The notes beneath the pieces are model-generated. The model searched no databases and was not told where the DNA came from. It saw only the letters and a list, made by a program, of their open reading frames with translations. Both the position numbers and the translations under genes were made by a program. From a virus: a DNA stretch of 55,033 nt. The DNA lies in the UHGV virus genome UHGV-0072939. One strand, written 5' to 3'. Below are positions 36,278 to 52,171 of the stretch, in pieces (position 1 is the stretch's first letter; every line of letters starts with the position of its first letter).

Positions 36278-36348
36278 CACAAGGTAACAAAAGGTACATT
36301 AAATAGCAAACAACAGTTACCATCAAAAGAGGTAACATTGGTTACATG
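36278..36348. promoter_or_regulatory. operator-like AGGTA direct-repeat pairs in the cro/cI intergenic region (OR-like)
   Basis: AAGGTAACAAAAGGTACATT and GAGGTAACATTGGTTACATG read directly; same unit recurs downstream of cI. Confidence 0.45.
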
Positions 36349-37005
36349 AAAACAGAGATGAAAGACCGTATTCGTTCGCGTCGAGTCCAGCTCGATATGA
36401 CTCAGCTTACCCTTGCCAAAAAGCTTGGGGTCAGTCGCGTGTCTGTAACGAAATGGGAGAATGGAACAACGAAGCCGGATGGTGAGAATTTACACCAACT
36501 TGCTGGTGTACTTCAGGTAACCCCGGAATGGATTCTCTATGGCAAAGGAGATGCTGACGTTGATGATATCAAATTAGTCCCCTTCCTTAAGCCGCCAACA
36601 GCAGTGCCTATTATATCAGCCGTTCAGGCTGGTTTATGGACAGAAACCTACGCCAGTTCAAGGCTTACAGACGTGATTGCATGGACACAAACTACAGCTA
36701 ATGTATCTGATGAGGTTTTCGGGTTAGTGGTCCGCGGAGAGTCAATGACTAACCCTCATGGATTGCCATCAATTCCAGAAGGTTCCATTGTTATCGTTGA
36801 ACCACATTTCGGGCAAATTGATGATCTTTACGGGAAAATAGTCGTTGCCACACTGGAAGGCTCTACCGAAGCGACTGTAAAAAAATTAGTGTGGGATAGC
36901 CCATTCGCCTATCTCATGCCACTTAACCCAGCTTTCAAGCCTATCCAAATTGACGGAAACTGCCGAATTGTCGGCAAAGTCGTCCAAATAACCCAGAACA
37001 TTTAA
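36346..37005 (+). CDS. CI-like prophage repressor (HTH plus S24 peptidase domain)
   Basis: 219 aa; N-terminal HTH (LTQLTLAKKLGVSRVSVTKWENG), C-terminal GESM...K (VVRGESMTNP, KKL) LexA-type autocleavage domain. Confidence 0.85.
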   Translation: MKTEMKDRIRSRRVQLDMTQLTLAKKLGVSRVSVTKWENGTTKPDGENLHQLAGVLQVTPEWILYGKGDADVDDIKLVPFLKPPTAVPIISAVQAGLWTETYASSRLTDVIAWTQTTANVSDEVFGLVVRGESMTNPHGLPSIPEGSIVIVEPHFGQIDDLYGKIVVATLEGSTEATVKKLVWDSPFAYLMPLNPAFKPIQIDGNCRIVGKVVQITQNI

Positions 37006-37020
37006 CCCCCCAGATATGTA

Positions 37021-37047
37021 GCCAAAGTTACCTTTGGCTATTTTTTT
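37021..37047 (+). terminator. intrinsic terminator downstream of the cI-like gene
   Basis: GCCAAAG-TTAC-CTTTGGC hairpin followed by TATTTTTTT. Confidence 0.7.
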
Positions 37048-37053
37048 ACCCCT

Positions 37054-37109
37054 AAAGGTAACATTAGGTACATTTCACGCTTGACCATCAAGGTAACTAA
37101 AGGTACATT
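37054..37109 (+). promoter_or_regulatory. candidate early rightward promoter with overlapping operator repeats (PL-like)
   Basis: two AGGTAAC-N-AGGTACATT repeat pairs; TTGACC (37081) 17 bp upstream of TACATT (37104). Confidence 0.4.
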
Positions 37110-37847
37110 CAATCCATCAACAGCGAACAGGCAGGACGCCCACGAAGTAGCCGCCGGTGGCATACGAAAAACCGGATGATTCGCTGACAGGTGTCTTCGG
37201 GAGGGGTAACAGGGTCGCGGCCTGATTAACCGCTACTCGTAGTCAAATTCCTACAGCTGGTGGCGATACCCAAGCCAGGAATACCTAAAACCAGCAGGGA
37301 GTGTTAAGGACAAGGGCTAATCATCCCCCTTAGCACCCCGCCCGAAGATCCCTGTTATTGCCAACGACCCTTTCTGGCGGCCCGTGTTTTCCCTTATGTC
37401 CGCGGTCACCGCCAGCTTTTTCAGGGCACAACATGCAAGCGCATTCTATCTAACATCGGTCGTGGGGACTGGTTTGTAACTGAAAGAGTGCGCTTCCAGT
37501 TGTGATGTGCTCAAGCGAGCTGCAGCGCCGGCCGACGCAAAGACCTGTGAATCGGCTTAGCCGCAGTTTCTGGCGGCCAATACCAAAACAGAGCGGCAGG
37601 AAGTAAGCGGGTTAGCGACCCGGTGTCACAACGTTCAATCCCGATAAGCACCCTTGCGAGGATGTTTATCGGGACTGGAAGAGTTACCACTTGGAGACGG
37701 TCCTTATAAATGTCCTGGGAAGTGGCGCTTTGGTCGCGATAACAACCACTCCAGTTGATCCTGGGAGTTATCAGGTCAGTGAGCTGCCAGCACTCTCGAC
37801 GGCAGTGACGGCGGGAAGTAGACCGCTGACAGCTGGGAAAGACCAGC

Positions 37848-37936
37848 ACACAACAGATAAGAGCATCGCCGGGCGACGGGCTCATAACCCAACCCACCCG
37901 GGCGGTTGCAGCCGCAGGTGCTCTTATCTGTTGTGT
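37848..37936 (+). other. perfect 18-bp inverted repeat (ACACAACAGATAAGAGCA / TGCTCTTATCTGTTGTGT) with 53-bp GC-rich spacer in a long untranslated leader
   Basis: read directly; right arm contains boxA-like TGCTCTTA; lies ~50 nt upstream of the first early ORF. Confidence 0.6.
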
Positions 37937-37985
37937 ATGGAGATAACTTACTGGCGGTGGCAGCCGCCGTTACGAGGGTAAACCG

Positions 37986-38357
37986 ATGAGCAATGATCGC
38001 ATGACCATAGTGCCCGATTTCCTGGGCGAACTGGATGCCGGGGTGTTCATGAACAAAATCGCGGCAGCTTTAAACACCACCGCGCTTGGTGTTCTGAATA
38101 ACGGCAGCAAAGGCAAAGTAGTCCTCACCTTTGACTTTGAGCGTATGGGTAACTCCGTCGAGGAGAAGCGCGTCAAGATCAAGCACAAGCTGAACTACAG
38201 CACCCCAACTCCGCGCGGTAAAGCCTCCGAAGAAGACACCACCGAAACACCTATGTGGGTTAACAAAGGTGGCAAGCTGACCATCCTGCAGGAAGATCAG
38301 GGGCAGTTGTTCGGGATCAACGGCGGCGTTGACGGAAAGCTTAAAGCGGCACAGTGA
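37986..38357 (+). CDS. hypothetical early protein (123 aa)
   Basis: GAGGGT SD before ATG 37986; first gene of rightward early operon. Confidence 0.4.
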   Translation: MSNDRMTIVPDFLGELDAGVFMNKIAAALNTTALGVLNNGSKGKVVLTFDFERMGNSVEEKRVKIKHKLNYSTPTPRGKASEEDTTETPMWVNKGGKLTILQEDQGQLFGINGGVDGKLKAAQ

Positions 38358-42839: not shown

Positions 42840-43045
42840 ATCTTGAATGCGTACCCATATCAACTTACTGCCGTGACTCCGGCGAGACCGTAGAAGCTGT
42901 TAATAAACGGATACAAAGGGGATTATGGCAGGAAGGGGTCCATATATTAAAGATCGATGGCGTAAAAGAGCGCTGGATTGATTTAACTGAGGTCACGAAA
43001 TGGGCGAGAAAAAACAAGGATCCTTACAGCTCCCACGCGGTATAA
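42836..43045 (+). CDS. excisionase-like protein
   Basis: 69 aa immediately upstream of and overlapping the integrase gene. Confidence 0.5.
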   Translation: MNLECVPISTYCRDSGETVEAVNKRIQRGLWQEGVHILKIDGVKERWIDLTEVTKWARKNKDPYSSHAV

Positions 43046-44175
43046 CCGCGCGCCATCATAAGAACGGCTCAACACTTATTATCACGTTCACATATAAAGG
43101 GGTTCTATGCCGGGAACCCCTTTCCCGTATCGAGCTGAATCCAAAGGGTATAAAATATGCAGAACGCCTCCTGGGAGAGGTTCAGAACAGAATTGCGGAG
43201 GGTGATTTCGATTATGCCAAATACTTCCCAAAATCTAAGAAGTTGGATATTTTTGGGAAAGTTAACCGGACAAAAAACATCAAGTCTTATCTCGATGAAT
43301 ATCTGGAGATCTGCGCAAATCGAAACTTATCGCCATCGACAATTGGAGGGTATGAAAAATGCCTCTCAGCTCTGTCTGATTTACATAAACTACACGTCGC
43401 CGAGCTTACACCGGCAGTATTGAAAAACTGGATCGCCAGCCGGAAAACAAAGCTTAAAACGATACGAAACAACCTCTCATTTTTGCGTAGCGCAATCGAT
43501 GAGGCAGTGACTGATGGGCTGTTGACGATAAACCCGGTTACGCTTGTCAGCGCCAGCCGGTACCACGTGATCGACAGCACGCCGAACCCCGACGATTACG
43601 AGGTGGATCCGTTCACACCTGCAGAGGCCAGCGCCATTTACATGCACTGCAGGTTTCAGGAATGGGAAAACCTGTTCCGCTTTGCATTTAACACCGGGAT
43701 GCGTAGTTCTGAACTGTGCGCGTTGCGCTGGCCTGATATCGACTTTATCGAGAATACTGCTCACGTTCAGGCAGCCAGCGTTGTCGGTGTGCTGAAGGGT
43801 ACCAAGACAAAAGCTGGTACCCGTAAAGTCGAGCTGAATAGCGATGCGCTGTCGGCGCTGCAGGCGCAAAAGCCATTCACCTTTATGAAGAGCGATTTCA
43901 TCTTCAGCGATCCTAAAACAGAGAAACCATGGGCAAACGCTGATGCGATTCGAAAAAAGGCCTGGGTCCCCACGTTGAAGAAAGCAGGAGTTCGGTACCG
44001 AAACCCATATCAAACACGCCATACGTTCGCTACGCGCCACATCAGCCAAGGCGTTAACCTTTTCTGGTTGGCCGGGCAAATGGGGCACAAAGGACCGGAA
44101 ATGTTGTTCCGTCACTATGGTTCCTACCTGGCTGCTTATGATGGGAAAACGGCAATTGAAGCGAGGAAATTTTGA
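43000..44175 (+). CDS. tyrosine integrase (lambda Int family)
   Basis: 391 aa; C-terminal catalytic region with R...HTFATRH...Y pattern (RHTFATRH, HYGSY). Confidence 0.9.
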   Translation: MGEKKQGSLQLPRGITARHHKNGSTLIITFTYKGVLCREPLSRIELNPKGIKYAERLLGEVQNRIAEGDFDYAKYFPKSKKLDIFGKVNRTKNIKSYLDEYLEICANRNLSPSTIGGYEKCLSALSDLHKLHVAELTPAVLKNWIASRKTKLKTIRNNLSFLRSAIDEAVTDGLLTINPVTLVSASRYHVIDSTPNPDDYEVDPFTPAEASAIYMHCRFQEWENLFRFAFNTGMRSSELCALRWPDIDFIENTAHVQAASVVGVLKGTKTKAGTRKVELNSDALSALQAQKPFTFMKSDFIFSDPKTEKPWANADAIRKKAWVPTLKKAGVRYRNPYQTRHTFATRHISQGVNLFWLAGQMGHKGPEMLFRHYGSYLAAYDGKTAIEARKF

Positions 44176-52095: not shown

Positions 52096-52171
52096 TGGTG
52101 GCCCTTGCTGGACTTGAACCAGCGACCAAGCGATTATGAGTCGCCTGCTCTAACCACTGAGCTAAAGGGCC
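52096..52171 (-). tRNA. ileY: tRNA with anticodon CAU, tRNA-Ile2 (lysidine) type
   Basis: reverse complement GGCCCTTTAGCTCAGTGGTTAGAGCAGGCGACTCATAATCGCTTGGTCGCTGGTTCAAGTCCAGCAAGGGCCACCA folds as a cloverleaf with GGTTCAAGTCC T-arm and CAU anticodon; matches recalled ileX/ileY. Confidence 0.9.

Follow-up and report, generated by a model that had tools for sequence, protein, structure and literature searches.

How is early transcription carried through a long untranslated leader and its terminators in lambdoid phages that lack N? We examined this question in UHGV virus genome UHGV-0072939, a stretch of 55,033 nt (hereafter, the window) that carries an N-less lambdoid prophage of the ST64B/SfV/phiNP type; the leader under study lies at positions 37110-37985, ahead of the first early gene. 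According to published genome papers, phages of this group have no N (PMC3851460), and a 2025 paper speculates on RNA-mediated, put-like antitermination for ST64B-type early-left operons (PMC12315714). A preliminary description of the window, made from the letters alone, had seen here a structured, cis-encoded leader RNA and had proposed nut-, put- or RNase III-site-like functions around a perfect inverted repeat with a boxA-like motif. We found that the early-left operon has an untranslated 5' leader, 37116-37985, made up of RNA modules of the + strand that fold independently and have been shuffled in evolution; from 5' to 3' they are A, B, T, C, D, E and F, and they are non-coding, strand-specific and under structural selection. 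The structured leader of the preliminary description thus stood, its boxA and put readings did not, and it had missed module A, hairpin T, the mosaic organization and a copy of the initiator-tRNA loop.

The leader is folded and non-coding

Tests of open reading frames (ORFs), of Pfam and PHROG families and of codon phase all agreed that there is no gene in 37110-37985. No + strand ORF in 37110-37690 is longer than 34 aa, and a 96-aa ORF that starts with TTG (37691-37981) has no Pfam or PHROG match. On the - strand, a 128-aa ORF that starts with GTG (37514-37897) has no Pfam match, and its sole PHROG match comprises 18 residues of phrog_3651, exactly over a conserved hairpin; we judge this match to be an artefact, as that PHROG probably contains mis-annotated ORFs drawn over the RNA element. 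When the leader was compared with its homologue in a Klebsiella phage (86% identity), mismatches fell on the three codon phases as 23/20/15 and there were 34 indel columns, a pattern that is not that of a gene. The predicted fold of the whole leader reaches −364 kcal/mol, as against −307 ± 6.7 kcal/mol for shuffled sequences (z −8.5). Together with the compensatory changes described below, these results bear out a structured, untranslated leader RNA encoded in cis. The leader had also been called GC-rich, which is only mildly so: its G+C content is 0.54-0.56, compared with 0.45 in cI and 0.51-0.63 elsewhere in the prophage.

In every annotated relative that we fetched (phiNP, SfV, ST64B, the Klebsiella phage and Escherichia coli F5), the gap between cI and the first gene measures 0.7-1 kb, and the region is left blank or filled with doubtful "hypothetical proteins". 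A scan of the leader with Rfam 15 gave only chance-level matches of miRNA models over palindromes, the sole match at gathering score in the whole window was a host tRNA, and the E. coli F5 leader gave nothing relevant.

That the leader consists of one or more decayed protein-coding genes is hardly credible. Such decay had been linked to the finding of an ordinary gene at this place in homologous prophages, and small genes do occur in some relatives between module A and hairpin F (e.g., SfV orf33), as do "hypothetical proteins" annotated over the region in some database records. However, these small genes are insertions that are not homologous to the window leader, so the argument from an ordinary gene does not apply; moreover, the leader has no ORF or family match, codon periodicity is absent, indels are many, and compensatory base-pair changes are seen.

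Module A, a three-way junction at the start of the transcript

The strongest candidate for an RNA polymerase-directed element in the leader is not the inverted repeat but a motif that the preliminary description had overlooked. Module A (37117-37191, + strand) is a three-way-junction RNA motif of about 70 nt, defined by a covariance model, covariation and RNAalifold, which recovers the same helices. P1 pairs 37121-37127 with 37180-37186 (5-7 bp across copies), P1a is a 3-bp hairpin (37130-37132 with 37138-37140, loop AGGAC), and P2 has 5 bp (37154-37158 with 37171-37175, loop GGCAUACGAAAA), with a loop of 12 nt, GGCAUAYGAAnn, across copies. Between the helices, the sequence is invariant or nearly so (AGGCAGGAYGCC CACGAAGUAGCCGCC ... 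GGAUGA): the junction CCACGAAGUAGCCG (37140-37153) is part of the invariant run CACGAAGUAGCCGCC, and GGAUGA precedes the 3' strand of P1. The 15-nt run CACGAAGUAGCCGCC served as the retrieval pattern for many loci, and its invariance is therefore partly by construction.

In an alignment of 113 distinct copies, 92.7% of the cells were paired and 257 cells were changed on both sides, a result reached by none of 500 shuffles and nowhere near approached by slid registers. P1 is replaced wholesale between copies (AGCGAA/UUCGCU, CCACC/GGUGG, UCAUC/GAUGA, GGAAC/GUUCC), P2 occurs in at least eight complementary versions, and Pectobacterium phage ZF40 and Providencia phage PR1 add further compensatory variants. 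Despite changes in the length of the P1a loop, GGA is kept in it (AGGAC, UGGAG, AAGGAAA), and GGAUGA is nearly invariant.

The covariance model, R1, found a single copy of module A in the window (97.1 bits, E = 1.7e-29) and no second copy on its early-right side. Module A has no match in Rfam 15, and a full-text literature search with its motif strings returned no paper. We also considered a hammerhead or another known ribozyme and rejected it: the order of the conserved elements is unsuited, and Rfam gave no match. A genome-wide scan with the pattern CACGAAGTAGCCGCC returned mostly chance matches in high-GC genomes.

The position of module A is as constant as its structure. The window and at least 10 immunity types all have it starting about 11 nt past the −10 hexamer, regardless of the operator, and it always lies just downstream of a sigma-70 promoter, including in ZF40 and PR1. 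By contrast with this, the sequence that follows is unrelated between phages: many have a small ORF 15-90 nt further on and others have long leaders, and in the window 800 nt more of non-coding RNA follow. Over all fetched loci, module A and the first gene are between about 390 nt and 1.3 kb apart. The hosts of phages carrying it include Escherichia, Salmonella, Shigella, Klebsiella, Citrobacter, Yersinia, Pantoea, Pectobacterium and Aeromonas, and it is also present in PR1, a T5-like Providencia phage. In this virulent phage (L209:2985-3067), module A follows a TTGCTT-17-TATACT promoter in the terminal repeat, ahead of the A2/A1 pre-early genes, and a boxA-like CGCTCTTTAA lies 8 nt after it.

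Module F and the initiator-tRNA loop

The perfect 18-bp inverted repeat with a 53-nt spacer (37848-37865 / 37919-37936) that had drawn attention to this leader was confirmed in the sequence, and it extends to 20 pairs by one U.G and one C-G pair. It forms P1 (37848-37867 with 37917-37936), the basal stem of module F, a branched hairpin at 37848-37936 on the + strand. The interior contains P2 (37869-37873 with 37897-37901) and P4 (37902-37906 with 37911-37915), and comprises a conserved CCGGG/CCCGG helix, a variable hairpin and a 3-bp hairpin, GGG-CUCAUAA-CCC. Folding of the 3' hairpin region, which the preliminary description had recommended, gave the 20-bp-stem fold with z −5.5.

The branched hairpin on a 20-bp basal stem was found across 69 distinct homologues, with compensatory changes at stem positions 4, 9, 10 and 15. 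Stem position 11 is mismatched in 23 of 29 distinct homologous arm pairs, usually as A.C or C.C, which makes the perfection of the repeat peculiar to the window. Elsewhere in the stem, G.U outnumbers A.C on the + strand by 46 to 3; this shows an RNA helix of the + strand, not a DNA site or an antisense RNA.

The inner hairpin at 37878-37890, GGGCUCAUAACCC, equals the core of the anticodon stem-loop of the E. coli initiator tRNA metY: the 13-mer is identical, the wider match is 17/19, and the hairpin has the three G-C pairs that set the initiator apart from elongator tRNAs. Among 56 distinct hairpins, the CUCAU loop was in sense orientation in 50 and inverted in none. ARAGORN and Rfam detected no tRNA in the leader or its relatives, where a cloverleaf with acceptor, D and T arms is absent, and the window leader has no 7-nt anticodon-like loop beyond that of module F. 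An array of anticodon-loop decoys was accordingly rejected, since this is the single tRNA-like 7-nt loop in the leader. A host tRNA with anticodon CAU and anticodon loop CUCAUAA lies at 52096-52171 on the - strand, about 8 kb past the integrase gene; ARAGORN calls it tRNA-Met, and we read its sequence as an ileX-like tRNA-Ile2. It has no relation to the CAU loop of the leader.

The arms of module F follow a pattern, CACAAC-N-AAG-N-GCA..., that is common to a wider family of hairpins including module C. A sister class of CACAAC hairpins carries two canonical T-arm hairpins with covarying 5-bp stems and a UUCGAUU or UUCAAUU loop, and phiNP has hairpins of the initiator-loop class and the T-arm class in tandem. 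Thus, tRNA-like cargo is a recurring theme of the CACAAC family. The T-arm hairpins are about 55 nt apart (e.g., GCAGG-UUCAAUU-CCUGC and CUCCG-UUCGAUU-CGGAG); this sister class is absent from the window and was seen at L007:2509-2650, L022:2433-2570, L331:1884-2030 and L001 (phiNP):2868-3000.

In most relatives, an intrinsic terminator stands directly before module F, its U tract abutting the CACAAC arm, whereas the window has the equivalent terminator-like hairpin instead at 37374-37421, directly before module C. Downstream of F, the second palindrome previously noted, GGCGG-TGGCAG-CCGCC, was found as described at 37953-37968. This short G+C hairpin, the Shine-Dalgarno sequence GAGGG (37974-37978) and the ATG at 37986 make up a + strand unit (37953-37988) in which the hairpin and the Shine-Dalgarno sequence are nearly invariant over the 69 distinct homologues. 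The 20-bp stem, about two helical turns in leader position, ends 50 nt before the start codon. An RNase III-like site had been among the earlier proposals, and a 20-bp stem placed immediately before the first ribosome-binding site has the right shape for one; cleavage is only predicted.

Could the repeats work as DNA instead? On this view they would have no function as RNA and would serve in recombination or protein binding, as an invertible switch or as boundaries of modules. In L072 and L073, the inner segment of one hairpin type is the exact reverse complement of the segment between the arms at the same position in L030 (L030:2840-2950), the joints between leader modules fall at CACAAC arms, and the arm sequence is conserved beyond the needs of pairing, all of which would suit a DNA element. 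Yet orientation is 50:0 in the main hairpin type and 4:1 in a second type, the preference for G.U over A.C is the signature of a + strand RNA helix, loop sequences are conserved in a strand-specific manner, and a 53-bp spacer is very short for enzymatic inversion. We regard a DNA-level element as highly improbable, and DNA inversion as the function of module F is unlikely.

A mosaic of exchangeable modules

Eighty related viral loci were fetched with the protein of the first gene, and the window leader was mapped onto these loci. The promoter and the first gene are about 240 nt to about 1.8 kb apart in them. The blocks differ widely in how often they occur among the fetched loci: block A (37117-37191) was present in about 150 and block F (37848-37990) in about 110, compared with about 24 for B (37187-37355), 40-64 for T with C (37366-37505) and 3-10 for D with E (37505-37847). 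Of 5426 complete E. coli genomes, 1383 contained some part of the leader. Leaders of Klebsiella phages and of E. coli F5, where the first gene is rdgC, have blocks C, D and E in one contiguous stretch at 86% identity. These alignments suggest that the window leader arose when an rdgC-type segment was recombined, with conserved hairpin arms as the joints, into a leader of the ST64B type (A-B-T...F).

Module B (37187-37355, + strand; inverted repeat I3 and consensus fold) is a closed multi-branch domain of about 170 nt, in which an 18-19-bp closing stem (37189-37207 with 37335-37353) surrounds three or four hairpins. The consensus fold of 17 homologues has −69 kcal/mol, with compensatory changes in 5 pairs. 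Hairpin T (37374-37421, + strand) resembles an intrinsic terminator: CUGGCGG (37374-37380) pairs with CCGCCAG (37409-37415) and C-UUUUU (37417-37421) follows, so that the hairpin has a stem of 7 bp plus 5 bp, a 14-nt loop and a C-U5 tract (−21 kcal/mol, z −2.7). It was flagged by our own terminator scanner and missed by a consensus terminator scan because of its long loop. T is kept in 40-60 loci, and a CACAAC hairpin always lies directly 3' of it.

In the window, this hairpin is module C (37427-37504, + strand; direct repeat D3 and inverted repeat I6), the first of the long CACAAC hairpins, CACAACAUGCAAGCGCA ... UGCGCUUCCAGUUGUG, which folds with −34.8 kcal/mol (z −4.35). It is a paralogue of the module F stem, and C and F are the only places in the window that match the arm pattern; a hairpin of the C type stands directly before the first gene in loci L032 and L068. 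Modules D and E (37505-37847, + strand) are structured segments common to the leaders of rdgC-first early operons. They share 86% identity with the leaders of Klebsiella phage ST147-VIM1phi7.2 and E. coli F5; codon periodicity is lacking and compensatory changes can be seen, and 37632-37770 folds with z −3.5. The leader has three copies of the string CTGGCGG and its flanks, at 37370-37380 (5' arm of T), 37566-37576 (module D) and 37947-37957 (final short hairpin). These repeats are complementary to the invariant GCCGCC of module A, and any long-range pairing with it would be putative.

Prophage setting

A cI-like repressor ORF (36346-37005, rightward) with HTH_3 and Peptidase_S24 domains (Pfam) precedes the leader, and the leftward genes include a P22-Cro-like gene, a CII-like gene and an O-like replication gene. 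The intrinsic terminator of the repressor gene (37018-37047, + strand) consists of a hairpin with a 10-bp stem (37018-37041) and a T7 run. A promoter scan located the early-left (PL-type) promoter TTGACC-17-TACATT at 37081-37109 on the + strand (region 37050-37109), overlapped by two 25-bp operator repeats (direct repeat D1, 37050-37074 / 37085-37109). Terminator and promoter thus sit where the preliminary description had implied. Phage ZF40 (L208:2960-3075) has a promoter like that of the window (TTGACA ... TACATT) with operator-like repeats AAGGTAAC ... GGTACATT, followed by module A; judging from these sequences, the two may have immunity specificity in common.

The first early gene (ATG 37986) belongs to phrog_204 and is of the Sb37/YfdP type. 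It is followed by genes for a DUF2303 protein, an HD-type deoxynucleotide phosphatase, an HNH protein, an exonuclease, a Xis-like protein and an integrase (43000-44172). An N-like gene had not been recognized before, and Pfam and PHROGs scans likewise found no N-like protein among the early-left genes and three scanned genes of the early-right side.

No nut site or put RNA

The boxA-like TGCTCTTA in the right arm of the repeat is indeed present, at 37919-37926. If it acted as a boxA, UGCUCUUA would recruit NusB and NusE, with or without a boxB-like hairpin at 37832-37847, into an rrn-type or lambda-type complex. The hairpin in question, GCUGG-GAAAGA-CCAGC, has a 6-nt loop, belongs to modules D/E and lies 72 nt upstream of UGCUCUUA, giving the boxB-then-boxA order of rrn leaders, and the G/U-rich UGUUGUGUAUGG comes after the motif. 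However, the motif is the 3' strand of the 20-bp helix, and is transcribed after the strand that it pairs with; at this site, most homologues have GCCCUUCU, GUCCUUCU or GCGCUUCC; and the boxB-like hairpin was found only in the window and one near-identical locus (L006), a terminator taking its place elsewhere. A lambda-type nut site would have a single-stranded boxA (CGCUCUUA) just upstream of boxB, a conserved boxB with a GNRA-like pentaloop and an N-family protein as the first gene of the operon. In the leader, UGCUCUUA is paired and downstream of the only boxB-like hairpin, no conserved boxB with such a loop was found, and there is no N gene. The nut/boxA reading is therefore not supported, being largely refuted by sequence conservation, and its chances are very remote.

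The put reading fared no better. Model R1 had no match to HK022 putL or putR or to HK639 putL, and neither a put HMM nor blast found anything in the window or the related loci: the put consensus sequence and its two-stem architecture (CGAACGGC..UAAACCAUGCGUCGG.. stem II) are both missing. The short strings CGAAC and GGAUGA, common to put and module A, lie in covarying or unrelated positions; we attribute them to chance and rejected them as signs of kinship. What module A does have of put is its position directly downstream of an early promoter, and only that. The HK639 record lists a "putL-like antiterminator RNA" and an "M3-like RNA" (L085:34187-34312, 37910-37969), neither of which resembles the window sequence.

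What the leader may do

The explanation that we favour, tentatively and at less than even confidence, combines a cis effect of module A on the polymerase with long hairpins that act as processing and tRNA-mimic sites. After derepression, RNA polymerase would start at about 37116, and the first RNA made, module A, would fold into its three-way junction. Like HK022 put RNA, it would work in cis to make the polymerase that transcribes it more processive, and transcription would then run past hairpin T and through an untranslated stretch of about 870 nt. Hairpins C and F, of the CACAAC type with 20-bp stems, would be double-stranded processing or stability sites of the RNase III type, comparable to the hairpin of the lambda N leader. 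Cleavage would detach the leader, leaving an mRNA whose 5' end lies a little upstream of the small G+C hairpin and the Shine-Dalgarno sequence. The copy of the initiator-tRNA loop in F would form a recognition surface, on which a tRNA-binding factor would tune the processing or translation of the first gene. Of these parts, the initiator-tRNA mimicry in F is likely to be functional; RNase III-type processing at C and F is, by analogy with lambda, a tenable proposal that we hold without much confidence; and a put-like cis antiterminator in module A, again by analogy, is possible but doubtful.

The context-independence of module A and its 5'-terminal position are what one would expect of an element acting on the polymerase that made it, and putL has the same place, directly after the early promoter (PMC9378689). 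By this analogy, the location at the extreme 5' end, the indifference to the downstream sequence and the sharing between lambdoid and T5-like phages suggest a host-supplied partner available at the start of transcription, for which the polymerase is the obvious candidate. The length of the leader and its terminator-like hairpins suggest that such an element would have something to do; in 66 of 109 loci, our own scanner reported at least one sense-strand terminator-like match in the 1.5 kb that follow module A.

Several observations weigh against this explanation. In the same crude scan, sense-strand terminators were not in excess after module A (0.79 per 1.5 kb, compared with 1.20 on the antisense strand). 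Module A is unlike put in both sequence and architecture, and it occurs in one copy only, with none on the early-right side. Leaders that lack it (L032, L005, Klebsiella L330 and E. coli F5 L331) keep units of a terminator plus a CACAAC hairpin, which implies that module A is not generally required for read-through and weakens the put-like model. A protein-binding site or an aptamer would account just as well for the GGA motifs and the conserved 27-nt junction, and the conserved arms and tRNA-like cargo of F exceed a plain RNase III site, which suggests an additional, sequence-specific partner. In the A-less leaders L032:2763-2815 and L005:2420-2520, unrelated 5' segments precede the first unit of terminator and CACAAC hairpin; these are maybe alternative 5' modules.

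The leader might instead have nothing to do with transcription control and be an RNA-level device for anti-defence or translation takeover, in which CACAAC hairpins titrate or recruit a tRNA-recognizing factor early in infection or induction. The tRNA parts on display would be the initiator anticodon stem-loop in the window and one or two T-arms in relatives. Candidate partners are an initiator-tRNA nuclease of the VapC/MvpT type, another anticodon nuclease of a defence system, the 30S P site with IF3, MetRS and RNase P. Lambdoid phages keep anti-host functions at the start of the early-left operon, and the leader is the first RNA from that operon. Winther and Gerdes reportedly found in 2011 that VapC toxins of Shigella and Salmonella cut initiator tRNA in the anticodon stem-loop, of which GGGCUCAUAACCC copies the tRNA-fMet core with its hallmark G-C pairs. 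The constant sense orientation of the loop, the covarying T-arm stems of the sister class and the tandem of both classes in phiNP all fit such a role. Conversely, the window leader has a single tRNA-like loop, module C is without tRNA-like cargo, ARAGORN and Rfam see no tRNA, 6 of the 56 hairpins have other loops, and one copy per transcript would make a weak sponge. Our literature search found no description of such a decoy. As a complete account of the leader, we consider this unlikely.

A different possibility is that most PL transcripts end at hairpin T, releasing a stable RNA of about 305 nt made of A and B (37116-37421) that acts in trans or as a protein sponge; the GGA motifs of module A would then bind CsrA or another RNA-binding protein, or A would be a ligand-binding aptamer. 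A terminator-like hairpin does close the A-B unit, module B is a compact closed domain, GGA persists in the P1a loop through its length changes beside the nearly invariant GGAUGA, and the conservation of the junction is aptamer-like. Early termination is also known to yield regulatory RNAs in lambdoid phages: in Stx phages, the short PR' transcript becomes the sRNA StxS (PMC7547250). The Pas sRNAs, which we also considered, belong to the late region and are unrelated to the leader. However, in many phages a protein gene follows 15-90 nt after A with no terminator between, so that A need not sit in a short terminated RNA. Besides, P2 takes up the second GGA in base pairs, P1 is not followed by a conserved expression platform, and B is present in only about 24 of the roughly 150 loci with A. 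A released A-B RNA thus appears quite unlikely to us.

The most far-reaching version joins these ideas. The early-left leaders of N-less enterobacterial phages would be sets of exchangeable RNA modules, with A as a new processive antiterminator that binds the polymerase, is unrelated to put and is common to lambdoid and T5-like phages; the CACAAC hairpins would mimic parts of tRNAs (initiator anticodon loop, T-arms) and so neutralize or exploit a tRNA-recognizing host factor, for example a VapC-type toxin that cleaves initiator tRNA. We regard this as improbable in full; if true, both anti-defence and takeover would be encoded by RNA alone, before the first protein gene.

Relation to known systems

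The closest functional parallel to module A is put of HK022 and HK639, likewise a cis-encoded structured RNA of about 70 nt that is the first to be transcribed from the early-left promoter of a phage without N. HK639 is annotated with a left put copy only, and the window similarly has a single copy of module A. HK022-type put binds the beta' zinc-binding domain of RNA polymerase and suppresses downstream terminators without a phage protein. This activity is demonstrated, whereas that of module A is putative; there is no similarity by sequence or model; the two stacked stem-loops of put contrast with the three-way junction of module A and its 12-nt P2 loop; and module A also occurs in a T5-like virulent phage.

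In layout, the window leader is like the lambda N leader (nutL and, ahead of the ribosome-binding site of N, a hairpin sensitive to RNase III): both have a promoter, an RNA element directed at the polymerase (putative here), a long double-stranded hairpin and then the Shine-Dalgarno sequence of the first early-left gene, and the window stem of about 20 bp is of RNase III size. Unlike lambda, the window has no N and no conserved boxA or boxB, and there is no homology; its hairpins differ in their conserved arm sequence, usual central mismatch and tRNA-like cargo, and an RNase III site is only predicted for them. The E. coli thrS operator resembles module F in that a leader hairpin just upstream of a start codon copies the anticodon loop and distinctive stem pairs of one tRNA, but the genes downstream of F include no tRNA synthetase and only a 13-19-nt core is copied. 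Finally, as with the 6S RNA of lambda PR' and with StxS, a promoter-proximal terminator in a phage operon could release a discrete structured RNA, although here the operon is the early-left one and the predicted RNA is much larger and more structured.

Cis-acting RNA elements in the leader of a phage early operon are thus known as such, whereas module A, the CACAAC hairpins and the copy of the initiator-tRNA loop appear to be undescribed: literature searches on the motif sequences, on ST64B/SfV antitermination and on tRNA-like phage decoys returned no prior description. Annotation pipelines leave such regions blank or place spurious "hypothetical proteins" there. Module A is a 70-nt, covariation-supported motif in well over a hundred phage sequences that is absent from Rfam and the searchable literature, and the initiator anticodon loops and T-arms of the CACAAC family are an unexpected cargo for a phage leader. 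For the N-less lambdoid phages of Salmonella, Shigella, E. coli and Klebsiella (ST64B, SfV, SfII, SfIV, phiNP, LLS), the question of how early transcription passes a long untranslated leader and its terminators now has concrete, testable objects. If module A acts on RNA polymerase, it would represent a second phage class of protein-independent antiterminator RNA, after put, and if the tRNA-like cargo binds a host factor, it would constitute a new RNA-level interaction between phage and host.

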